Of a DNA stretch of 64,000 nucleotides, positions 7,094 to 49,200 are shown one piece after another. Numbering within the stretch: position 1 is the first letter of the stretch; each line of letters starts with the position of its first letter. The position numbers were made by a program, and so were the translations under genes. The notes under the pieces are model-generated. The model saw only the letters and a list, made by a program, of their open reading frames with translations, searched no databases and had not been told where the DNA came from. This stretch comes from Catajapyx aquilonaris. Its lineage: Eukaryota. The DNA lies in the NCBI GenBank assembly GCA_000934665.2, contig KZ538094.1:1-64000 (forward strand), given 5' to 3'.

Positions 7094-8107
7094 CTATTGT
7101 TCACCATCCACTGACCCTGCACTCTGAATATACAACTGAATGTCATGAACATGCATTTCAGACAAGGAAATAAGACTGGAGAGAAACACAAAACCCAAAT
7201 ATTGTACAGACATCAGAAATTCCCACAGCTTATCAAAAAAAACAGCAGTTAAAATGAGCTGCAGCAAATTAAACACATTTAACAATCGCCACAACCAGAA
7301 GATGAACCACATGATGGCTGACTTCATAACTTGCTCCTGAATGATGGACTGGCGTGGAGTGACCGCTTCTTTTTGCAAGGCTTCCTGATAGAGAGCAATA
7401 TATCTGTTCCAAGCAGTAGAACTGAGCAATGCCTGCATGGCAAAGCACACAACCAAGCGCACTATCTTACCCATGGACACATGGCTCTTAGTTTGTCCTG
7501 AATCTTTTTGTTCAAATAAAGCCAGAGGCATGTACGGTCCTCGGCGTGGTGGGTGGCTCCTAAGGTACAGCATGCATCCAACAAAAACAAAAATGCACCC
7601 TAAACCATCACATATCCCATCTACAAAATAGCCTAGAGAGCCAACTTCTGAGATGTTTGTGTCGATATTCTTGGTAGCACGAGCAACCACTCCATCTAGG
7701 GCATCCAAAAAATTCCTAACCATAAAGAGGAAGACCCCCATTCGGCGTATGGAGAGAGAATCATTGGTAAGCAGACGGGCTGACACCAGTCCAACAAATA
7801 CATGCAAAAGGCTTATCATGTCGGCAGTGATAAACGGAAAATTTTTGGGGGTGTTGAACACCATGTTGAAAGCCACAGCAAGTGGGTGATGAACATAATG
7901 ATTTGTATGATCAAGCATTATCATCTTCACAGTTACATGGCAGAAGGGTGAGATCTGGCATAGCCTGCTTGCAGTCTCATTTTTTGGTGGTCTCATATTT
8001 CCATTTTGAACACAAAAATACAGGTGAATATCCAGCAGCAAGTATATGACCACCACAAACAACAGTCCACCTAACAAGCATTTGTTTCCTGAAGGGAAGA
8101 GGCTCAT
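7094..8107 (-). CDS. Cpes: Ceramide phosphoethanolamine synthase (CDP-alcohol phosphotransferase family), 337 aa, single coding exon
   Basis: Intact ORF with the CDP-alcohol phosphotransferase motif DALDGVVAR...G...DGICD, several hydrophobic segments and an N-terminal MLDHTNHY block I recognise from insect CPES. The true start is ATG 8107 (context CAAG-ATG), not the TTG at 8119. In-frame stops lie upstream, and a splice acceptor (tttgctccttgcacag|G) opens the exon at 8144. Confidence 0.9.
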   Translation of the reverse strand: MSLFPSGNKCLLGGLLFVVVIYLLLDIHLYFCVQNGNMRPPKNETASRLCQISPFCHVTVKMIMLDHTNHYVHHPLAVAFNMVFNTPKNFPFITADMISLLHVFVGLVSARLLTNDSLSIRRMGVFLFMVRNFLDALDGVVARATKNIDTNISEVGSLGYFVDGICDGLGCIFVFVGCMLYLRSHPPRRGPYMPLALFEQKDSGQTKSHVSMGKIVRLVVCFAMQALLSSTAWNRYIALYQEALQKEAVTPRQSIIQEQVMKSAIMWFIFWLWRLLNVFNLLQLILTAVFFDKLWEFLMSVQYLGFVFLSSLISLSEMHVHDIQLYIQSAGSVDGEQ

Positions 8108-8731
8108 CTTGAATTCCAATTTATTTTACTTGCGCTCTTCTCACCTGTGCAAGGAGCAAAGAAGACAAAAAAAGAACAAATTAATTGAAGTCATGTGGTG
8201 CTTCACTAATACTCTAAAAACCTTAAGGACTTGAACATCTGCGAGAAGCAACATGTACCAAAATGATGCTGCAGCTTGTGGTGCACCAAAATGCAAGAAG
8301 CAGCCTCACAAGAGATAGTAATGGAGTTGGATTTAACAACACATTCCAGCAAAGCAAACCACAATAATTTTTTAATTAAACTGACACTGGGAATGATAAA
8401 TGCGCAAACTCATAATAATTTGGTAACCTTAAATTTCTGATTGTTCAATTTGCAGAGAGGCATCCCATATCAGACAGGTCAAACCTGGAACTTGAGGAAA
8501 CTAAAAATGGCACCACTCACACAAGTACTAGATGAACTAGAAGGGCATTAAAATGTGCAACAGAATAATTCTGCCACAGTCTGTGGTGAGTTGAAATAAT
8601 ACAGTGGGCCCTCCATAACTGCAGATTCAACCAGATATGGATCGAAAATACTTTGNGGGGTGAGGGGGGTAATTATAGGTAATCTGGAGATGATTATTTT
8701 AAAGTATACAAGAGAAAGTGAATATGTTGTA

Positions 8732-27739: not shown

Positions 27740-29080
27740 TTTGAATGAGAATAAGGGCTGACCTAACCTTCAGGTCCTACAGCCGAAATTCCCTGCTGTT
27801 TATTTCAACTAAAATAAATACAACAGGGCAACAAATACTCCAGACATTGCTTCCAGTCACCAATACCAGCCAGTCCATCCAGGAAAAGGCAGGAGTCCAT
27901 GGGCAGCACCGGTCCAGGAACGTACCACCCCACTCCATCAAGCCACCAGCTACAGCTCCGTTCTCTCCTTCTCTTTCCACTGCAGCAACTCGACAGGTCA
28001 CTTGCAGCTCAGCTCCGCCATGAGTTCTCCTCTTTCAGGTTGGCCTCGACCCGTAAACAAAATTCATTGAAAGCACTGAGCAACTGTGACACCAGCGCAC
28101 TCTTAGCCAACCCAGGCCTGCAGAAACCGCCGACCTCTTCACTTCCCCCCTGGCCTGCATTGTCTTCGGCATGGTGCAAGTCCAGAGGACGTATGCTGCA
28201 TCCTGAGGTCCCTCACCACATGGGCAAAGTTCTCCCCAAACCTGTTCTTCTAACAGGAGTTTGAACTGGGCTAGGTAGGCCCTGTACAGGCCATGGCGAG
28301 AAACAAGGTGGGCGATGTGGCCGTGGAGATGTCTAAATGTCGAGAAGTCACGGAAGAAGCCCTCCAGAGCCATCTAAGCCTCCTGCCAGCCAGTCAAGGT
28401 GTCTCTCCAGATCCGACTGCACAGTTCCCGCCATTTCAGGGAGAAAGTGTCTCCTGGTGGCAATCTCCGTGACCCACCTAGCTTCCCTGTCTGCAATCTC
28501 GTTGCCTCACGTGCCTGAGTGGCCCGTCATCCAGCAGAGGCGAACCTCCGCCTGGGAACTCCTGAGCATGTCTCGAGCCGTAAGTGCCAAGGGCCATGTA
28601 CTTCCAGGGTTGGAAATGGCTTGAAGGGCCGACAGGAAGTTGGACACCACTAGCACCGGTTCAGTGGTGTCTGGGGCCAGTTCTTCCACCAATATATTCT
28701 AAGGTCCTCACGATGGTTGCCAGTTCTACTTGAAAGATGTCCAGGGAGATGAAGTGGCGCCGCGGTAACGCGCGCGCCCACGGATATTAAGGTCCCGGGT
28801 TCAATCCCCACCCGGGGTTCCCACCTTTATCCGTGCAGAGTTGGGCCATCTCTGGCTTCATTTCGGGTGGCAATTTCCGACAGACTAAGCCACCCGGGGG
28901 AGTTCACAAAATGACCAAGCAACGACATTGCACTTGCACTTTGCACATCCCCTCCTATTCATTCCCCTTTCGCTCGCGGTACCCGGGCGTTACGGAAAAG
29001 GACCACTTGTAAAAGCTTGTACATCTTAAGCAAATAAAGGTACCGTGCCAGATGCCCAATTAGGGCGGTGCACTAACCCG

Positions 29081-29113
<33 letters not shown>

Positions 29114-30843
29114 CTTGAAAGATGTCCACTCCAACCACGTAGGGGATGTGCTCCAAGAAAGAAATGTTCCCAGCCTCATTCCAGCTCCCCACGGCTCCTC
29201 CGGCTCTCCCATCTCTAGCGACCGAGCCATCCGTAAAGATCGTCGAGCCACTCCTTGTCGGCTGCTCATCCCAATTGAAGATGTCTAATCGGCTTCCAAC
29301 CCAAGGAGGAGATCTGGCGCAATATCGCTGTGACTGACCCATACTGACCTGTTCAGAGTAGGTCTTCCAGGCCTCCCATTTGTATCTCGCTAGCCGCTCT
29401 GGAGGAGCCACCCTGCTCAACACGTAGAGTAACTCGTTAGGGGATGTACAATATGATCTGGTAACTGCTAGCAGGAATGCCGAATGCAGGCGGGTCTTGA
29501 TACGTTGATTGTCTGAACGGGCATCCCAGATTTCCACCCCAAAGAGAAGCATACGAAGGATGGCACTTACAACAATTGTCCTCCTGCTGCAAGGAGAAAG
29601 GCCCCATCTCTGGCCAGCCACCCTCCAAAGTCTCACGGTGACAGCTCTCACTGGCTGAAGCCCTCTTCACATGCGGCAAACAGGTAGATCCCCACGACCA
29701 GTATCTCGTCCTACTGTGGAATACATGCCCCTTGAAGTCTCAACACGGACTTGCTATTGAAGTGATGATGTGGAAGGAACATCCCTTCAGTTTTCTTCAG
29801 GTTGTATGACATGCCAGTTACTCGAGACCATGTGATCAGATGGGCTTCCAAATTGTGCCAAGTCCTGTCAATGGAGGGGCTGCAAATTAAGATACACTGG
29901 TCATCTGCGTAGCCCTGCAGTAATGTGTCTTAGTTGGACCTTTCACGGACGGCCTGGAACCATGGATCCATCACCACGTTCCACAACGTGGGCCCTCGGC
30001 TAGTCCCTTGGGGGCGCCCCCTAGACATGGTGAATGTACCAGTGTCGGTGACCACTTTTCTGGGGCACAAAAATCCATCTATCATGTGCAACAGCCCTTC
30101 TAGACAGCCCAGGGAAATCAGGTTGCAGATTATTCGCTCGTGGGGTATGCTGCTGAACGCATTGGAAATGTCCAAGGTAACCAGGGCACAATGGTTGCCC
30201 TCGCTCCAGGCTCTCCTCACTCTATCCACCAAATTCCCGACAGCATCCCTGCTGATGCCTAAAGCTGTACTGATGCACATCCAAAAGTTGACCCATCTCG
30301 AGCCAGTAGTTCAGGCGACGATTTAGGATCCGGTCTCAAACTCTACCCAGTGCAGGTGTTAGGCATATTGGTCGAACTGCCTCAGACTGATCCTTTGGAA
30401 TCCACACTACTCTGGCTTCCTTCCAGGCCGGTGGGAAGATAGCGTGATGGTAGAGGGACTGCAAGAGCTGCAGCCAGAAGCCTCCAACTGCACTGAGGAT
30501 GTTTTGAAGACAGGCCAAGGGAAGATTTTCGGGTCCCGGGGCCTTGGCAGGGTTCATGGCTCAAACCACCTCCTCCAGTTCCCCCATTATGAGGGGATGG
30601 TCAGTGCAGGCCAGGCTCTTCGGAGGAAGCACTCTGGAACTCCAGGTACCATCTGAATAAGGCGTTGATCCCAGGTACAGCACTTCCATCCTAACGTTGA
30701 CCCCCCCCCCCCCTCCCCCTGTGAGTCCTCTCGAGTTCTCAATGCTCTGTCCGGCCCCACCTCTGAGAATCCTGTACAGCAGTGAGAAGGAGTTGACATC
30801 AGAGTGCTGCTCGCAGAACTTCCTCCAGCTCTCCCTCTTGCTA
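27740..30843 (-). mobile_element. 5'-truncated, degenerate R1-clade-like LINE (RT, RNase H, C-terminal Cys motif)
   Basis: KAPGPE, RPICL, LDISNAFSSI, GRPQGTSRGPTLWN, YADD, IFTDGS, LCWMTGH..GNEIAD and CPCG..YVLWTC; many stops and frameshifts; 7-bp TSD GCATGCA (27733-27739 / 30844-30850). Confidence 0.88.
28744..29111 (+). mobile_element. tRNA-derived SINE (family B) inserted in the LINE RNase H region
   Basis: Similar to 27045-27443; perfect 17-bp TSD TACTTGAAAGATGTCCA; (ATT)n tail. Confidence 0.92.
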
Positions 30844-30867
30844 GCATGCAGGAAACTCAAGGATGTA

Positions 30868-31107
30868 CTATATCGCTCAAAAAATGGAGACCATTGTGCA
30901 TTTGGTTTCAATGCAAAATCGTCTCCATCTTTTTGAGCAATATAGTACAGTGCTGGACATAATCGAGGCAACTGCCAGTGACATTTTTCCTAAGCGGCAG
31001 AAGAAGGAATCACAGATAAGCATACTTCAAGCCGGGCGAGCAAGATTCCTTTTTCTGCTGCTTCGGAAAATGTTGCTGGCAGTTGCCTCGATTTATGTCC
31101 AGCACTG
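30868..31107. mobile_element. Two adjacent Tc1-type mini-MITEs (30868-30945 and 30948-31107) sharing one TA
   Basis: TA|CTATATCGCTCAAAAA..TTTTTGAGCAATATAG|TA|CAGTGCTGGACATAA..TTATGTCCAGCACTG|TA; removing both restores similarity to the other mariner arm. Confidence 0.85.
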
Positions 31108-33321
31108 TACAACAGGGGAACTTGTTTCCAAGGTGGGACAAGTGAAAGTACTATGATGCTTAGGATTCTGTAAGACAAGGGACTCACGAAGTTGGCATCA
31201 AAATTCACCAGCTCTCTGAGGTGCAAAAGTGGCACCACTTCACTGCCCTCACCTAGAGAGAGAAACATTGGGAAACCTATCGTAGTGAGGGTGATGGTTT
31301 CCTTAAACAGATTGTGGCGATGGATAAGTCATGGCTCCAGTCATAGTGCTCTCACTTGTCCCACACTCGAAAGCAAGCTCCCATGTTGTCCATCATAGTT
31401 TCCTGCATGCAACGTTCAACGGCCCCAGTGATGGAATTATGCTGCGGAGGTCTGCCAGATCTGGAGTCATCGAAGAGTCTTTCCTCTCACCCTCTGCTGA
31501 AAGAAGCTTTGGCCCAGTGTTGGACAGTGTGCAATGGTAGAGTGGCAATGACACCTGTAGGCTGCAGCTCTCACCAACTGCTCATGGATAGCAACAGCAG
31601 GGCCATAGCCAAGAATAACCTGGACTTTGATGAACAAATGCTGTCACTCCAAGCACGTCAGGCTCGGGCCATCTTACGAGTGATGGTGGCTGTAGGAGGT
31701 CATCATCTTCTTTTGTTTACTTACCCCCTTGTGATCTGTGATCCATCTATAGTATACCAGACCAAATTGTAATCACTGGATTAGAAACTTAGTACAAGTC
31801 ATCTCTGTATAATTATGCTATTACTTTCGAATATAAAAATATGCGCAATGTCTTATGAATCAACCCATGTATAAACTCGGCTCGCAATTAACTACTAAGA
31901 GCTCATAGCTCTGACTTGGTCAATTGTAAGCTGCGTTTATTAGGCCTATACATTTGTGTGAAGCCATGAACAGAAAGTATTCACTGCCTTTCCTTTCCCC
32001 CCTCTCTCTCCCTGGCCCCCTGAAGTTAGCAACTTCCACTAACCCATGTGTAGTATTGGTAAACAACCAGCTGCAACCAGTGTACGCCATCAGTGAACGT
32101 TAATAACCCCTCGACGTTACTCTCTGTCCAACCTTCTTACAACCAAATAGCCTTAGTAGCTTTGGCTTCGTATCACTCCATTAACCACCCTCGCCCAAAA
32201 TGAATGACAATGTTTCCTTCATCTGTACACGTGCAGTCAACACTGCTCTCACCCTGTACCCTGTATGCTGATGAATGGGGGGAAAAAAAGTACCTGGTGA
32301 CGCCCAAAGCGGCACCCAAAGCTTTCCCGTCACACTCTCTCGCTCACATCAACCCGTAGCCGGTACACCTCTCTGTCAGTGTCCACAACGCACTGGTGTC
32401 ACCACAAAACCGCACAATAATTAGACCAAAACAGTGCAAGTCCACACTGGATTAACGTATACTTGGTTGGTGCTTCGCACGATCCACGGCACGATGGCGT
32501 GACGAGACCCACATCACGTAGCAGCTACTCTGCACAGCTGATAATAATTATTGTTCAAAAATAATAGCTTACTACTACAATAGCAGCGATTTTAATAGCA
32601 GTTCAAGGCAAAGTTCAGGGCACGGTTCACGGTGTTCACTGGCTCGTAAGGCCGAGTTTTGGAGCAAATTAGATACTTACTACCGTGGGTAAGTCCACAG
32701 ACGGGCTTCTTCCTCTCGCTACGACCGATTCTCGTGAGCTTGGGAACATAATTTGATATGTATAACCGCTACTTGCAATAGCTACTCCAATCGCGAGGGA
32801 GATCAGCATGCCGTGCTTTGATTATTGGATGGTGCTGCCGTTGTGTGAGAAGTGGCTTCTGTCAGAACTTGGAAAAAGGCGCGAGGTCTGGGGCATGTGA
32901 AGAATGAAAATCAATAAGCGCCGCATTTAATGATGGCCCAATCATTGATGGCAATCGGACTTGCTTATACCGGTAATCTAAAATCTTTGTCCAATTGGGA
33001 ATGGCCAATTAGAATAATTGGCATCAAGCGCTAATGGCAGAACTCATTTTGTTCAAATCCCTCTTGTAGTAGATGTAAAAAGTGATGCGTCTATGCAACT
33101 AATATTAGCAGCCAATGTTTTTGATAACCAATAAAAATCTAAATTTCCCAACCCTAAATAAGGATTATAAGTAGCACTACAAAATAGAGCCCGACCATTG
33201 TTTCAGTTCATTACAAAAAGCTGTTGTTTACGACAACGAATTTATGCTAGCTGCTGCTTATGACGGTGACTTGTTAATGCCAATTTAAAAATAAATAATA
33301 ATAAAATATGTTGCCACTTAC

Positions 33322-42933: not shown

Positions 42934-43312
42934 TAGAGAGGCTCTAACTTGTAAGAAGAGAGTCGCCAACTTATCATGTAAGGTCGTCTCTGATTGGCTG
43001 GAGTCATTTTGGAGTGTTTATACGTGTCCTATGGAGGCCGCAATCGTGAATTGCTATGGACACAGTATTCTAAAACCGTGGAATGCCCTCGCACAATTTG
43101 GATGCAGCCAGAAGGCCTGAACTACAATCGATATCGATCGTGACGTCAGAACCGGCCACCGTTTCCACGGTTTTAGAATACCGTACTGTTTCCATAGTAA
43201 TTCAAGATGGCGGCCTCCATTGATAGGACACGTAAACACTCCAAAATGACTCCAGCCAATCACAGACGACCTTACACAATAAGTTGGCGACTCTCTTCTT
43301 CAAAGCTCTCTA
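42934..43312. mobile_element. Palindromic MITE with an 11-bp TSD (Mutator-like)
   Basis: TAGAGAG...CTCTCTA ends; inverted arms of ~150 bp; TSD TATGGTGGATC; the empty site is visible in the right arm of the duplication (~47640-47660). Confidence 0.88.
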
Positions 43313-43416
43313 TATGGTGGATCAGATGGTGACGCAAGAATACGGTATATGACCAAGTAATTGGGGCAAAAAATCTGATTATATTGCTCCACCAACGTAA
43401 CCCAAACGCCAAACCG

Positions 43417-43615
43417 CAGGGGTCGAAATATTCGGATGCAAAGGTGCAATTTGCACTCCAAACTGAGCGTTGGGGTGCAAAGTTTGCACTTCAGTTGGTT
43501 CTGCTTTTTAGCGTAGCTTAACACAGTAGTTAAAAATTAAGCACTCCAAGTAAATAATTTGCACTCCAGCTGAAAGTGTGGATCAGAAACAAAATAAAAT
43601 AAAATTCCACCCCTG
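43417..43615. mobile_element. Small hAT-like MITE
   Basis: CAGGGGTCGAA / TTCCACCCCTG; flanks AAACCG/AAACTG; internal TTTGCACT repeats; absent from the right arm. Confidence 0.7.
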
Positions 43616-44071
43616 AAACTGGATTAATATATTTTACGACCCAAAATGTTGGGTTCACAAAGTTATCCGAACATTTTGGTTATTTTTAAAAACCCAAATG
43701 ACCTCTGGGACTGCTGCTGGGTTACTTTTATTTTGTTTATTTTTAGAATTGTGTTATTCTGCTTTTGTGTGTAGTTAGTCTTAACTTACTGGCCAGTCTA
43801 TTAACTTGTAGTACTATTTTATTTATTTTACCTCACATGTATTTTTTAAAACATTATGATCATTTATTACCTTGCATTTCCGCCCTGCTTAGTCCTTTAA
43901 AAATGCATTTGAAATTATTTTATACGGTTGTCATTACTTCATTCCCTGGTTTCCATGCACAGTACCTACACTAGCACCCCTCACACACAGATAATACAGT
44001 AATAATATACTGAACGTCTGACCCACGTTTGGTGGAACCTTTTATTCTTGTTTAGTACACTATGCCATTTT

Positions 44072-44490
44072 CTACAAGGGGATGAACCACGAAACGGCGG
44101 TAACGCGCCATTTGGTTGCTTCCTCCAGGATGGTCGGCGTGTCCAACCAACGCCCTACATTCTCCACAAGACCTGCAATAGTGCAATAATGCATCCCATT
44201 ACACTCTGTAGATACTGTATATCAGTTTATACTGGCAGGCATCGTTCACACTTAGACTACTGTTAGTGAGCAGTGTAACATGACGGCTACTCACCCCTTT
44301 TCGTGTCATCGTTATCTGGCATACACTTTCTGCATATGCAGCAAATGCGCTGCTTAGCATCTAATTCTGCAAAAGTGCACAGAAAGTACACATTATAAGT
44401 TAGTATGAGTTGCGGGTACAGGAATGCGTGTGACACCTCCTTCACTTGCCCTAATGACTGAACTAAATGTGCCTTACCTTGTGCCTCCAT
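44072..44490 (-). CDS. Unknown CxCxxC microprotein A, 61 aa, three exons: join(44478..44490,44295..44366,44072..44172)
   Basis: MEAQELDAKQRICCICRKCMPDNDDTKRGLVENVGRWLDTPTILEEATKWRVTAVSWFIPL*. Introns are GTAAGG..TACTAAC..TTTTGCAG (111 nt) and GTGAGT..ATTGCAG (122 nt); AATAAA at 44046-44041; paralogous to protein B. Confidence 0.8.
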
Positions 44491-46139
44491 CGTCCCAACA
44501 GTGCCAATACTCTATCCTATCTGCAAAATAAGATTGGTGCCAACCCGTGCCAACAGTGCAGTGGTGTGAACGGGTGTGAAACATGAAAAGCCAACAAAGC
44601 CAATCACGCCAAGTCGCCAACAAGTGTACCCAACCGTCACACTGTTGCCAAGGTGTTGGGTTAACTTTGTGAACTCGGGTCGTAAATTAACCCAGTTTGG
44701 GTTACATTGGGAGCAATAATTATGTAATCAGATTTTTTGCCACAATTATTTGGTCATATTATTACGTCACCATCTGATCCACCATATAAGGGATACCGGT
44801 ATAGCTGATATTTTTGATAACTTCCTACGAATAACTGTTCGAAAATAACTGCCGCTTAATAACAAGCAACGTAGATCCAAATTAATCGATATCTAATATG
44901 CCATGTGCCTATAGCACATTTAGAATCGTATCTGGAACACACCATTTTAAACTATAGCCTAAATAGACTACTTGATACTGTTCATCCTGTTATACAGTAA
45001 GAAAGTTTACAAGATAGTCTGGCAATGCAGTGCCTTGCAGTTGCGCGCTTCGTGAATAGCTATTATTACCAAGTCAGTTTAATAAAGATATAATTCCTCT
45101 CTTTATTTGACTCAATGTCTGGACTCTTCATTATGATTACCTAGGCCATTCAAAACAATAACAGAGGCCACTTTCGTGATGCAGGTTAAGAGATCTTCCG
45201 CGTCATTAATTAGACCTGTACGAGCGCAATTCAAACAGCTAATAAAAATTTGTCTTCGTGTGATCGGTATGACATGTTCCTAACTTTATTTTAGGTGACG
45301 TGCCAACTCTTATGATTTTAACTAGGCCACATGGGAGGCACTGAAACATATGCCCATATTGGGATGGGGTCAGAGGTCACTCCGATGGAGGACACGGTCT
45401 CTGACGTCGGCGACGCGACGCCTAGAGTGAAACGTGTCTGGTGACCTGCAATTAAAATATCAATGCTATCGACATTCGTTGACATTAGTGGATGAGAAAT
45501 GACAATTCTCCCAGATCATGTTCCTATGTCAGTGCTAGGCATTAATAATTATTATTCAGGCGTCAGTTACACTAAGTGAAGGCCCAATAACCGAATTATG
45601 GATGGCACCACGGATAGTCCACCAGTTCCAAGTCACGTCCTCGTCCACGTCTTCCGCCATCACCCACGAGCCCTCCGTCACGACATTCTAACTCTGACGA
45701 CGACAAATAATAATCAGTCCTAGGACGTTACTAGTATAAGCTGTTATTGCGCTTTACCAGGTGAAAATAATAACTTCTTCCCTAAGTCGGATCCAAAATG
45801 GCGCATAGCGTGCTAAAAAAAACCGTTTTTCGCCGAAAGTAGCTGCGTATAACGGCTATTTCCGTAAGCAGTAGCAACTTACTGCTAATGTTCACGTGAG
45901 CTTTGCATCTACGTTACCGTACTCTATGATTTGCTTCAATCACAGGTAATGTTGTGGGATACAAATTAATGAATTATTATCCAAGATGGATAGAATACAT
46001 CTTGTTATTATCCCTCCGTCTCGTATAGGTGGAAGGTGGCATGGTTACACTAAGCTGCTACTCTGTCCGAAAAGTAGCTTTCCTTGACTTCTGTAGTTTC
46101 TTGTACAAACCGCCAACTGTAATCGAGGCCCTCGTGCGG

Positions 46140-46581
46140 TAGCGTTGCCAACTTATCGAAATTTCAATGACGGATTTTATGCCACGCGTCAACGGGGAAA
46201 ATGTTGCATTTAGCGGTCAGTTGAATTTTTAACGGATTTATGTAAGGAGTCAATAGGTCGAATTTTCGTATATATTAGCTACCGCTAACAAGAAATGGCC
46301 GTAGAAACCATTGTTGACAACAATGATTTCTACGGCAAAAATTAGCAAGGGGGGCAAAACATGGGCAAAACATCGCATCGGCGAGTTGCGGGAATCGATA
46401 TTCTACCATCTACCTCATTATTACAAATTTTCTCTTCTTTTTGTTTTACCTTAAATCGTGCCTTAAATATATGAGTTTTACCATTTCTGAGCGGTATAAG
46501 GCAAAATAAAATCATTTAGCTGATTTGAGGGGATTTTAAACTTATTTGCTTCAACTGAATTTTTCTCAGTTGGCAACACTG
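46140..46581. mobile_element. hAT-like MITE with a 5-bp TSD
   Basis: TAGCGTTGCCAACT / AGTTGGCAACACTG; TGCGG on both sides. Confidence 0.7.
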
Positions 46582-46724
46582 TGCGGGAACACTGCTGACA
46601 CTGTGGCCAGTGTGACGCTTGGGTACTAGGATGAGAGAAAGAGGATAGACGACACTGAGCTGGGATCCTGCCGTAAAATAACGGTTTCAGCTGTAACAAG
46701 ACTAACAACTGAACTGCGAGACTA

Positions 46725-47161
46725 ATGGAAGGTAATGTATATTTTGATCAGTGTCATGAGGGCAAGTGAAGGAGGCGTCACACAACTGATCATTCGGACC
46801 TGTGCCCGCAATGCATACTAATTTAATTTGTACCTTTTGTGTACTTATACAGCTGCGATTGAACCAGGTATGGCGAAGAAGGAAAAGATGATCATGTGCA
46901 GGTGCCACGAGTGTCTTCACATGAACGACGACACTCGAGCTGGTGAGTACATACACTGCTCATGAGTGTGACACTACTGCATGATACCTGCCGGTATAAA
47001 TGGACATACAGTACCTACAGCGACCTACAGAGTGTAATTGGATGCATATTGCAGGTCTCATTGATGAGAGATATTTTCGACGGTGGGCAGAATCCAAGAA
47101 TGTGATTGAAGAGTCGCGTAAATGGAAGGTCACATCTCTGTCATACTTTTTACCGCTGTAA
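46725..47161 (+). CDS. Unknown CxCxxC microprotein B, 67 aa, three exons: join(46725..46731,46853..46942,47055..47161)
   Basis: MEAAIEPGMAKKEKMIMCRCHECLHMNDDTRAGLIDERYFRRWAESKNVIEESRKWKVTSLSYFLPL*. Introns are GTAATG..TACTAAT..ATACAG (121 nt) and GTGAGT..ATTGCAG (112 nt); ATTAAA at 47170; paralogous to protein A. Confidence 0.8.
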
Positions 47162-47849
47162 AAACGGAAATTAAACAATCCTAAACTAAAGTTAACTTTA
47201 TTATTAGTGTTTTATCTGTGTGTGAGGCATGCTGGTGTACTATACATGGAAACCAGAGGTATGAGTAATGACAGTATCAATGTAAGTTCAAATGCATTTT
47301 TTAATTACTTAACAAAACAGGGGCGGAAATCCAGGTAATAAATGAGATAATAAGTTAACGAATAATACCCATGAGATAAAATATGTAGAATAGAATACAA
47401 GTGAATGAACTGGCCCATAAGATTAATTACACACATAAGCAGCACAACCCAAACTGGGTTTTTAACAATATCCCAGCAATGATTGTCACAGAGGTAATTT
47501 GTGTCAAAATAACCCAAAATGTTGGGTTAACTTTGTGAACCAAAATTTTGGGTCATAAATTAACCCAGTTTGGGTTATGGTGATGGCCCTAAAATACAAT
47601 CAGATTTTTTGACCAAATTAGATCATGATATTACTTCACCATCTGGCCCACCATAATGACCTAAGTCTAATGCTGCAATGCATGCGAAACAAAATTTTGG
47701 GTAGCTTTAATGGGTCACAGACAAACTAATGTCAGTATTTTGCAATCATAAGAGTTTTTTTCCTGGAACTCAAACATGGAACAGTAGTATGCAACAGGTT
47801 AAGTCACACACACAAAAAAAACATAATTTCATATCCACATAACCTTATA

Positions 47850-47980
47850 CAGTTGAGAACCCTTCATTCGAAATTCCAAAATCCTAAAACCTCAAAAATC
47901 CTATTTTTCACATGCATGAATATTCCAAAATCCGAAAGCAGTAATGTTCCAGAACATTTTGGATAAAGGATTCCCAACTG
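47850..47980. mobile_element. Tigger-like MITE
   Basis: TA|CAGTTGAGAACCCTT...AAGGATTCCCAACTG. Confidence 0.6.
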
Positions 47981-48047
47981 TTATAACATTACTATACCAG
48001 CAATGATCACAAGAGCTCTTCACAACTTGACAATTTCTGAGGAAATA

Positions 48048-48217
48048 CAGGGTGACTCTAAAGTCTGGATACATATTTTATGTCATTGGATTGCATTGTT
48101 TGTTGCCAGTTGTGCCAACTCAATCTTCACTGAGTGTCAACAATCTGCTAGTTGGCACAACTGGAAGCCAACAAAGCAATCCAATTGCCTATGTATCCAG
48201 ACTTTAGAGTCACCCTG
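48048..48217. mobile_element. Tc1/mariner-type MITE
   Basis: TA|CAGGGTGACTCTAAAGTCTGGATAC...GTATCCAGACTTTAGAGTCACCCTG|TA. Confidence 0.9.
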
Positions 48218-48439
48218 TATTAGCTATCAGTGTATGTATATTAAGAAATGTAAGTCTTGCTGAATTTCAATCTTGTGCCTGAGAAATAGTGTGTCTTGTA
48301 TTGAGATAACTGGTCAAAGCACTAGTCCCTATATTTGCTGCAGTGTAATAATCAAAATCCAGTGCCTATCATCATGTGGTACATGTTCACCCATAATAGC
48401 CCTACAGTCCTACATCCTACATGACTGCAGGACTGAGGC

Positions 48440-49200
48440 TTCATGAGTTCAGCAGTTGTGTACTGAGGAGGTCTTCAGGTTTTTCTTTACCACAGTCCAT
48501 AGTACAGTACTAATAATACTGTTCAGTCGTGTAAGTGTGAAATCTCTTCTCAGAAATGAAAATCTGAATGACAAGTTTCAGCACATAGGCATAATGTATT
48601 CACAAAAATTGTTAACCTCCAGCAGTAGACATATCCTAAATCTAGCCTAGCAGTATCCTAAATCATTCAAGGGACAGCTCTGCTTAACATCACATTCAGA
48701 CTCATCCATATTTCCAGTTAAACTGTCACAAGCTGTTATTTATATGACTGTTAATTTCTGTTGTCTCATTTTCAGTTGTGGCTTTTCTAATATTTTTCTT
48801 TTCACTTAGGCAAAACCTGCACATGCTGTCTAATAGCTTGAAAATGACTCCACAAAACCAATAAGTGTAATGAGACCAAAGTTATCACCTGCTATTTGGA
48901 AATAGGTTGCTTTGACTTTTCTTTTGCTGCCACTGCACTGGGCAAATTCAGAAAAACACCATTTTCCTGCAAGTCATTCAAGTCTCGCAAGAGTGGCTCC
49001 ATGATTGGTGTGTAAGAGTACAATACTTGGAGACATCTATAAGTATGAGTGCATTTGTGCAGCAAAACAATAATATTCAGCTGTGAATTAAGCCAAGGTG
49101 GTAAATCGTTTACATCCCAACAAACATAACCTTGCTTATGAAGGGTCTTGGGCAAGACCAGTGGATTAGCTACTTCCACATCATCCCTATGTGATGTGCT
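48440..49200 (-). pseudogene. EnSpm/CACTA-type transposase relic
   Basis: DDVEVANPL, NDLPPWLNSQL, IMEPLLRDLNDLQENGV, VKQSCPLNDLGY and FTLTRLNSII, in the order seen in animal EnSpm-like transposases; heavily broken. Confidence 0.7.

Follow-up and report, generated by a model that had tools for sequence, protein, structure and literature searches.

Two candidate three-exon CxCxxC microprotein genes with diverged exons and similar introns in Catajapyx aquilonaris

The window, the whole 64,000-nucleotide stretch of Catajapyx aquilonaris DNA that was analysed, holds two candidate three-exon genes that point away from each other, A on the minus strand and B on the plus strand. They had been proposed as two spliced ORFs, and joining the exons at the proposed GT-AG sites yields open frames of 61 aa followed by TAG for A and 67 aa followed by TAA for B. 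All four introns are GT-AG, of phase 1 and at equivalent positions, and the exon coordinates are those of the original prediction. The features of the locus are the following.

43616..44071, minus strand: gene A 3' flank, aligning with the 3' flank of B; the outer end meets a MITE-like repeat
44072..44172, minus strand: gene A exon 3, 101 nt including TAG, encoding the predicted C-terminal helix region with the PL end
44173..44294, minus strand: gene A intron 2, 122 nt, phase 1, GT-AG
44295..44366, minus strand: gene A exon 2, 72 nt, encoding the CCxCxxC and NDDT motifs
44367..44477, minus strand: gene A intron 1, 111 nt, phase 1, GT-AG, with TACTAAC at 44399-44405
44478..44490, minus strand: gene A exon 1, coding part, 13 nt (ATG and 10 nt, then a GTAAGG donor)
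44491..46724, no strand: spacer between the start codons, 2.2 kb, unique, with dissimilar upstream regions
46725..46731, plus strand: gene B exon 1, coding part, 7 nt (ATG and 4 nt)
46732..46852, plus strand: gene B intron 1, 121 nt, phase 1, GT-AG, with TACTAAT at 46816-46822
46853..46942, plus strand: gene B exon 2, 90 nt, encoding the CxCxxC and NDDT motifs
46943..47054, plus strand: gene B intron 2, 112 nt, phase 1, GT-AG
47055..47161, plus strand: gene B exon 3, 107 nt including TAA
47162..47571, plus strand: gene B 3' flank, aligning with the 3' flank of A; the outer end meets a MITE-like repeat

An in-frame stop lies upstream of the ATG of gene A. The predicted branch sites in intron 1 and poly(A) signals after the stops were recovered in both genes: TACTAAC and TACTAAT are 32 and 30 nt from the intron-1 acceptors of A and B, respectively, and the stops are followed by AATAAA for A (44041-44046, minus strand) and ATTAAA for B (47170-47175). 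In random sequence of the local composition, a frame remains open by chance in 1.9% of cases over 61 codons and in 1.5% over 67 codons. A and B are predicted to be transcribed and spliced as modelled. The spacer contains a weak U12-like match (46458-46610).

Common to both proteins is a Cys triad, CxCxxC, followed by NDDT..GL, while RW, EE, KW, VT, S.F and the PL terminus are invariant in the C-terminal part, which is predicted to form an amphipathic helix. Three Cys are conserved out of totals of four in A and three in B, which is not the even number of a disulphide scaffold. Averaged over the 25 N-terminal residues, hydropathy is -0.79 in A and -0.21 in B, and the maximum Kyte-Doolittle mean over 15 residues reaches 0.61 and 0.01, respectively; judged from hydropathy, there is no signal peptide, hydrophobic N-terminus or membrane segment. 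With His absent from protein A and no fourth Cys conserved, there is no evident zinc site of the classical type with all four ligands in a single chain. The exon-3 peptide was modelled as a single helix (residues 3-32, mean pLDDT 80.5) from an isolated 35-residue fragment and a two-row alignment. The products of A and B are predicted to be soluble, non-secreted proteins of 7-8 kDa with neither signal peptide nor membrane segment.

The proposed relationship of A and B is borne out by a global alignment score of 130 against -30 +/- 11 for shuffles, none of the 5000 shuffles reaching 130. The remaining eight frame combinations all scored negatively and all contained stops, and tblastn cross-matches between the two genes inside the window had E values of 1.8e-7 and 2.8e-9. 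Of the 61 residues aligned across the full length, 24 are identical and 41 BLOSUM62-positive. From the first shared Cys onwards, the 21 identical positions counted in the original prediction were found again, over 48 aligned codons instead of the 50 given.

In the protein-guided alignment, A and B differ at 32, 18 and 45 of 61 sites for codon positions 1, 2 and 3, respectively (chi-square p 6e-6), and in a nucleotide-only alignment at 24/57, 17/58 and 37/58 (p 8e-4). These differences track codon position, and the exons therefore evolved as coding sequence. The proportions of differing sites were 0.43 for pN and 0.875 for pS, and dN/dS was not estimable because synonymous sites were saturated. 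The indels in the exons are exclusively multiples of 3 (6, 18 and 6 nt) and those in introns and flanks are irregular, as had been observed before. Purifying selection on the two proteins, which had been put forward as the explanation, stands with regard to the coding signature (codon positions, pN < pS and indels of 3n nt); in its plain form it is incomplete, as the introns and flank are 67-81% identical despite the saturation. Since no homologue was found beyond the window, the selection argument draws on one pairwise comparison of about 61 codons.

Nucleotide identity between A and B was 44% in exon 2 and 50.5% in exon 3, compared with 44 and 43% in shuffled controls, respectively. Intron 1 was 80.7% identical and contained a 31-nt core at 94%, intron 2 was 66.7% identical and contained a 23-nt block at 96%, and the 3' flank was 69-72% identical over about 400 nt (72% over 415 nt). 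The upstream regions showed 48% identity and no similarity. Third codon positions differed more than intron 1, intron 2 and the flank (Fisher p 3e-12, 5e-7 and 1.5e-10, respectively), and at four- and six-fold sites in codons of identical residues 8 of 9 differed versus 197 of 672 aligned non-coding sites (p 4e-4). Within the A/B pair alone, non-coding identity exceeds synonymous-site identity, a feature looked for in multigene families, and it is patchy along its length with 12 to 27 matches per 30 columns. This contrast between exons and introns calls for an additional explanation, be it faster evolution of the exons, homogenisation of the non-coding DNA or constraint on the introns. A literature search for the exact phrase of introns "more conserved than exons" in a gene family returned no match.

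DNA contigs from the same sample match either side of the exons but not across them, with joints at 44251>44365, 46828>46910 and 47059>47169, the last of which omits almost exactly gene B exon 3. The matched sides measure 58-69 letters, and the contigs were aligned at 85% likeness; such joints can also arise from repeats, and summed depth is not a copy number. Matching introns and flanks and skipping exons, these contigs suggest further copies elsewhere. Intron 1 of gene B is covered by at least five further same-sample DNA contigs, with 46788 G>C in 5, and the three variants listed for B exon 2 in other such contigs, A10V, I16S and H21R, are all non-synonymous. No third copy was present within the 64 kb window. 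A and B are probably members of a small, lineage-restricted family that has additional copies elsewhere in the genome.

MITE-like repeats occur at 43311-43407, 43616-43690, 44648-44788 and 47514-47655, so that each arm runs into such repeats on its outer side and A also has one upstream, and a very high-depth repeat adjoins at 43500-43640. Depth bins of run X1 amounted to 70-190 over the genes versus 2662 in the adjacent repeat. Run X5, the kind of which is not recorded, covers the repeat at 43516-43582 alone and not the genes. Around A and B, neither terminal repeats nor target-site duplications that would delimit a cassette were identified. A neighbouring ORF is 39-50% identical to insect ceramide phosphoethanolamine synthases, which gives indirect support to an arthropod origin.

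The original prediction could not place the proteins in a family, and the searches agreed, giving no Pfam family, solved structure or credible homologue, the large ones having been made with exon-sized pieces. In Pfam-A, protein A had no match at the gathering threshold, the best being PH_17 (12 bits vs 22.4), GGN (10.3 vs 27) and Transpos_assoc (10.4 vs 27.7), and protein B had no match at E<=10. The Transposase-associated domain (PF13963) was rejected at E 0.8, with residues 6-27 of A aligned to positions 29-50 of the 74 in the profile and B giving no match. Proteins of the COX17-like/CHCH family carry twin Cx9C motifs besides a CCxC copper site; a copper chaperone of this type was rejected as A has CCxC and no Cys after residue 19, and B is without the first Cys. 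A host gene for snoRNA or miRNA was likewise discarded, with no Rfam match at E<=1 over 43000-48500 and fold z-scores of -0.93 to +1.07 for the four introns. The intron-1 core, searched as a DNA pattern, had no match in metagenome or viral contigs.

Among proteins of 36-118 aa, a word-index search with peptide B yielded no candidate with three common 5-residue words. A profile of 35 exon-3 positions from A and B was compared with 1.84 billion representatives, and one match at E<=0.001 was obtained, P0076 (103 aa, E 5.7e-4), which consists of three tandem KWR[IV]TA[LV]SC units on one metagenome contig and is named gluconate kinase by its source. It was rejected as a homologue and taken for a chance or repeat match, the shared 8-mer being expected about ten times in such a library (estimated from typical residue frequencies). 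A 35-residue profile has low power for distant relatives, and the search at this scale covered exon 3. In the ESM Atlas, exon 3 of B retrieved unnamed clusters alone, at a recognition of 1770 that is below the useful range. The best match among solved structures was a de novo designed protein (E 0.073), and exon 2 of B had no match there at E<=10. Of 50 metagenome contig stretches that fitted back-translated exon-3 patterns, one passed tblastn (L001), and it was rejected because the match spans 14 residues in the interior of a long, unrelated ORF and neither a stop nor a PL terminus is close to it. Literature searches on arthropod microproteins and on CxCxxC found no paper describing the family, and the CxCxxC listing consisted of unrelated proteins.

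We lean towards the view that A and B are paralogous protein-coding genes of a lineage-restricted family with exon-focused divergence. In this view they occupy the two arms of an inverted duplication, each arm being about 0.9 kb long, starting about 40 nt ahead of the ATG and ending about 400-450 nt beyond the stop. That the exons are so much less alike than the non-coding DNA would then reflect accelerated divergence focused on the exons of a fairly young family, a pattern described for the gene families of venoms. A point against this view is that the synonymous sites outpace the neighbouring non-coding DNA, contrary to what simple positive selection predicts. A more tentative proposal, to which we give a minor share of belief, is that non-secreted microproteins, a class previously undescribed for this, have exons that change faster than the surrounding neutral DNA, synonymous sites included. 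Exon-targeted mutagenesis might bring this about, or else diversifying turnover from an intracellular conflict with a selfish element, a virus or a meiotic driver. The three non-synonymous variants of B exon 2 fit such faster exons and do not prove them. Speculatively, the Cys triad may hold a metal ion or be S-acylated, the conserved aromatic face of the C-terminal helix could dock onto a partner, and the variable surface might have been reshaped through some genetic or host-parasite conflict; this combination is a long way from probable.

Saturated synonymous sites together with 39% protein identity are typical of old paralogues, and A and B could instead be ancient paralogues under ordinary purifying selection, with non-coding parts homogenised by gene conversion between the arms or other copies and diverged exons kept apart by selection. 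Gene conversion is favoured between inverted repeats that lie 2.2 kb apart, and the patchy non-coding identity would suit it. However, it would need to act solely on four separate non-coding stretches of about 110-450 nt and to halt at every exon boundary, and exons at shuffle level leave little homology from which to initiate it. Moreover, contigs from apparently other loci likewise skip exons and share introns, and the roughly uniform non-coding identity (67-81%) fits a single duplication date. We regard homogenisation as rather unlikely.

Lower still in probability is a functional element residing in the conserved introns or 3' flank, as regulatory sequence or non-coding RNA, the transcript being mainly a host and the small ORFs secondary or decaying. 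Intron 1 differs at 19% of sites compared with 30% at second codon positions, its core reaches the identity given above, and several other genomic contigs carry it. Yet the exon differences follow codon position and the frame was kept in both copies despite saturation, while no intron folds better than its shuffles and Rfam offers no match. The intron indels are irregular, and the similarity extends across all non-coding parts rather than one element. It is similarly improbable that A and B form the passenger ORF cassette of a repetitive or mobile element, or an unexpressed relic pair, and that the extra contigs are repeat copies. The MITE-like repeats around both arms and upstream of A, the adjoining high-depth repeat, promoter regions that A and B do not have in common and the lack of homologues in the word-index and exon-3 profile searches would all be in keeping with a cassette. 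Nevertheless, A and B are the sole copies in 64 kb, their excess of depth in run X1 is modest beside that of the adjacent repeat, and no bounding terminal repeats or target-site duplications were identified. Nor would relics retain all eight splice sites and two open ORFs in matching frames while their nucleotides diverged to saturation. If A and B were an unexpressed or repeat-borne cassette, they would be of small interest.

For paralogous genes with exon-focused divergence, snake-venom families are the closest parallel, as the non-coding parts of their paralogues stay similar and the differences sit in exons. In crotaline PLA2 genes, intron divergence is reportedly about a quarter of exon Ks, a figure attributed to Nakashima et al. 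in 1993 and 1995. As far as the excerpt of PMC2711939 goes, the intron segments of three-finger toxin and phospholipase A2 genes are >85% similar, and profound differences occur in exons only. Unlike A and B, which lack a hydrophobic N-terminus, have only three conserved Cys and gave no toxin-family match, the venom proteins are secreted, disulphide-rich and equipped with signal peptides. The likeness is one of evolutionary pattern and not of membership. In conotoxin and polydnavirus cys-motif families, introns and flanks are also reportedly more conserved than the mature-peptide exons, and synonymous rates raised. Their products are secreted cystine-knot peptides with gene structures unlike those of A and B. 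Beyond venoms and immune genes, the exon/intron contrast of A and B is a compact case in which divergence focused on exons can be tested, and it offers a means of telling whether such patterns stem from selection, from targeted mutation or from homogenised non-coding DNA.

According to the excerpts of the sources that describe them, the CxCxxC spacing recurs in the zinc clusters of polyomavirus small t antigen, in metallothioneins, in the three-Cys As(III) sites of ArsR and in the N-terminal motif of separase. None of these matched A or B as a Pfam model at E<=10, and they have no relation to A and B in length, context or remaining sequence; so short a motif cannot by itself establish kinship.

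If expressed, A and B would define a protein family overlooked by ORF-based annotation and family libraries, and spliced microprotein genes would be recoverable through paralogue comparison alone. Arthropod smORF genes such as tarsal-less/pri, sarcolamban and hemotin are mostly single-exon or polycistronic, and several encode membrane peptides. With A and B, to which no sequence similarity would be expected, they share products of <100 aa that are missed by standard ORF tracks and annotation, whereas A and B are three-exon, monocistronic and, as predicted, soluble.

Two divergently oriented, putatively spliced ORFs, with 2.2 kb between their start codons, lie in a part of the window free of N, the window itself being eukaryotic-looking with a G+C of ~42%. 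Joining the stretches put forward as exons by the original prediction gave open frames in both cases:

44490-44478, 44366-44295, and 44172-44072, minus strand: exons of gene A, a spliced ORF of 61 aa
46725-46731, 46853-46942, and 47055-47161, plus strand: exons of gene B, a spliced ORF of 67 aa

All four introns have GT...AG ends and phase 1, measure 111 nt (intron 1) and 122 nt (intron 2) in gene A and 121 and 112 nt, respectively, in gene B, and interrupt the two proteins at equivalent points. The predicted branch sites (TACTAAC or TACTAAT, 30-32 nt 5' of the intron-1 acceptor) and poly(A) signals (AATAAA or ATTAAA after each stop codon) were found. Exon lengths differed between A and B by 6, 18, and 6 nt. 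In the stretch 44287-44511 (minus strand), intron 1 of A (111 nt) is without in-frame stops, and an unspliced A transcript would be read into a 67-aa variant that carries a hydrophobic insert and terminates shortly past exon 2. B, whose intron 1 is 121 nt long and contains a stop, has no equivalent, and the readable intron of A is therefore probably incidental.

The two proteins aligned with 24 of 61 positions identical and 41 BLOSUM62-positive. Their global alignment score was 130 compared with -30 +/- 11 for shuffled B, none of 5000 shuffles scoring as high, and the remaining eight frame combinations all gave negative scores and contained stops. Counted from the first Cys common to both, identity was 21 of 48 positions, close to the earlier count of 21 of 50. 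A tblastn search with each peptide across the whole 64-kb window recovered the partner gene as the sole match (E 1.8e-7 and 2.8e-9), with everything else at E>=0.1. In 1.9% of trials with random sequence of local composition a frame of 61 codons stayed open; for 67 codons the figure was 1.5%. The paralogous spliced ORF pair exceeds chance, and the observation is confirmed.

Differences between A and B were distributed by codon position. A protein-guided alignment, which is biased toward first and second positions, placed them at 32 first, 18 second, and 45 third positions out of 61 each (chi-square p 6e-6), and a recount after aligning exons 2 and 3 purely as nucleotides gave 24/57, 17/58, and 37/58 (p 8e-4). 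Different codons were used in 14 of 24 identical-residue pairs, and 8 of the 9 four- and six-fold degenerate identical-residue codons differed. The codon-position differences support the coding inference made earlier, and the exons have evolved as protein-coding DNA under protein constraint. Nei-Gojobori proportions were 0.43 for pN and 0.875 for pS; synonymous sites are therefore saturated, and the dN/dS ratio suggested as a check cannot be given. Purifying selection, as originally proposed, holds at the protein level and leaves unexplained why the non-coding DNA looks younger than the synonymous sites.

The halves of the locus carrying A and B (the arms) align as an inverted duplication, with the following identities between A and B:

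Intron 1: 80.7%
Intron 2: 66.7%
500 nt 3' of the stop: 69% (blastn 72% over 415 nt)
Exon 2: 44%
Exon 3: 50.5%
300 nt 5' of the ATG: 48%

Shuffled-exon controls aligned with 44 and 43% identity for exons 2 and 3, respectively, and the exons are therefore at background on the nucleotide level. Third positions differed more often than intron 1, intron 2, and the flank (Fisher p 3e-12, 5e-7, and 1.5e-10, respectively), and even second positions differed at 30% of sites compared with 19% in intron 1. In a 30-column sliding count, identity fell within exons 2 and 3 and recovered ~35 nt past the stop. In this one pairwise comparison of A and B, the exons are far more diverged than the introns and 3' flank. 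Shuffle-level exons within well-conserved introns and flank place the locus beyond an ordinary orphan ORF pair.

Contigs assembled by Logan from four DNA runs of one sample of the same organism were aligned at 85% likeness, together with one run of unknown kind without coverage of A or B. Across the compared region this last run touches only a very high-depth repeat at 43500-43640, where bin depth in one of the DNA runs reached 2662 compared with ~45-60 in neighbouring bins. Two contigs of similar depth covering 45855-46149 (295 nt) were 15 substitutions and 20 gap positions apart; two haplotypes are present at the locus, and the sample is highly heterozygous here. Many more single-contig variants were listed across 43500-47700. 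Among the 40 of 120 rows tallied, at least three fell in B exon 2 (A10V, I16S, and H21R, each of them non-synonymous and outside the conserved Cys) and at least two in A exon 3 (E46E and T42A). Five contigs carried 46788 G>C in B intron 1, and these do not represent gene A because 46788 sits in a 10-nt stretch absent from A in the arm alignment. Several contigs matched either side of an exon and not across it:

44251>44365: contig joint spanning A exon 2
46828>46910: contig joint spanning the 3' end of intron 1 together with the initial 57 nt of B exon 2
47059>47169: contig joint spanning B exon 3 almost exactly

The sides of these joints measured 58-69 letters, and weaker joints with sides of 27-30 letters ended at the last intron-1 bases (46851, 46852); at 85% likeness repeats can produce joints, and summed depth does not equal copy number. 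To judge from where their matches stop, the exon-skipping contigs apparently belong to further family members sharing introns and flanks and not exons, and shuffle-level exons between conserved introns and flank would apparently recur in other copies.

We consider it moderately probable that A and B are genuine genes for paralogous microproteins and belong to a small, lineage-restricted family whose exons change far more rapidly than its introns and flanks. The non-coding parts would then have decayed neutrally since one duplication, with the exons accelerated. Such exon-focused acceleration is favoured by a roughly even non-coding identity (67-81%), by indels of irregular length, and by a 5' boundary that is sharp. 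Phospholipase A2, conotoxin, and polydnavirus cys-motif genes are reported to behave comparably. The same pattern has been described for snake-venom gene families, whose introns are >85% similar and which show "profound differences ... restricted to exons only" (PMC2711939). A and B are predicted to be non-secreted, unlike those families, and the likeness would lie in evolutionary behaviour, not membership.

The inverted arrangement could have let conversion between the arms homogenise the non-coding DNA of old paralogues, a reading that would fit the saturated synonymous sites and that we regard as unlikely. Still less probable is that introns or flank are the functional part and the ORFs secondary. 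The well-kept intron 1 would suit it. Indels of introns and flank are irregular in the arm alignment, which makes concealed coding capacity in these parts less likely. Folding of the four introns was in no case better than that of their dinucleotide shuffles (z -0.93 to +1.07), and an Rfam scan inside genes A and B gave no family at E<=1. The intron-1 core was not found among contigs from viruses and metagenomes. About equally improbable is a cassette that is repeat-borne or unexpressed. Searched against the window, the arms matched each other and a MITE-like repeat only (outer ends and upstream of A).

The MITE-like repeat, of ~140 nt with a palindromic core, has copies at 43311-43407, 43616-43690, 44648-44788, and 47514-47655. 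Both arms have it at their outer end, and a further copy lies 160 nt 5' of gene A; the copy downstream of A is apparently split by other sequence.

Proteins A and B have masses of 7.1 and 8.0 kDa and pI values of 5.2 and 7.7, respectively. Both lack a hydrophobic N-terminus and any hydrophobic stretch long enough to cross a membrane, and the prediction is therefore that they are soluble and do not take the classical secretory route. Common to them are an acidic/basic N-terminus, CxCxxC, NDDT, GL, RW, EE, KW, VT, S.F, and a terminal PL. In A, a fourth Cys directly precedes the CxCxxC triad and His is absent; B has two His near the triad. An exon-3 peptide model gave a single helix over residues 3-32 (mean pLDDT 80.5), which, coming from an isolated fragment with a two-row alignment, is weak evidence for a helix in this region. 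As reasonable guesses, the triad may be a putative metal site or S-acylation site, and the aromatic face of the helix may dock a partner. The first five codons of an inverted-repeat arm (43031-43067 and 43184-43220, within a 73-nt/93% inverted repeat at 42948-43305) open with ATG and read MEAAI, as does the spliced B N-terminus in other codons, which is probably coincidence.

The family remains unassigned within the limited reach of the searches made. Pfam gave nothing near threshold for either peptide, a word-index protein search with peptide B gave no candidate, and neither ESM Atlas (B exon 3) nor a PDB sequence search returned anything usable. The large-scale searches covered exon 3, as an unbroken translation. 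An exon-3 profile had one match among 1.84 billion representatives (E 5.7e-4), a tandem-repeat metagenome ORF rejected as chance. In a pattern-based metagenome scan, 1 of 50 pattern matches passed tblastn, and this one was discarded because it falls within a long, unrelated ORF.

Elsewhere in the window lies an ORF with relatives in the protein collection searched:

7094-8125, minus strand: intronless CDP-alcohol phosphotransferase ORF, 343 codons (Pfam PF01066, 23.7 bits)

Its best relatives were insect ceramide phosphoethanolamine synthases at 39-50% identity, with no near-identical protein and no close relative of the organism in that collection, and it is the one feature here that suggests an arthropod-like origin. 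A weak full-length match to the U12 minor-spliceosomal snRNA (RF00007) lies at 46458-46610 on the plus strand, 115 nt upstream of the B ATG, its 23.1 bits falling short of the gathering score of 53 (E 0.012 when 371 nt are scanned and 0.18 for 5.5 kb). Retained are 5' GUGCCUUAAA..AUGA, UAAGG.AAA.UAA, a Sm-like site (AAUUUUU), and a 3' stem, and the first loop is enlarged by an insertion of 22 nt. The match may reflect a U12 gene that has diverged, a pseudogene, or chance. A G+C-rich block at 28000-32000 (0.49-0.53 versus ~0.40-0.45 elsewhere) contains several ORFs of 140-185 codons without a Pfam match at E<=0.01 and may be a degraded mobile element. A nested perfect hairpin at 48044-48221 (arms of 32 nt, 100%; inner arms of 36 nt, 89%) matched two plant/other miRNA families below threshold (23-26 bits versus gathering scores of 70-99) and is probably another foldback or MITE element.
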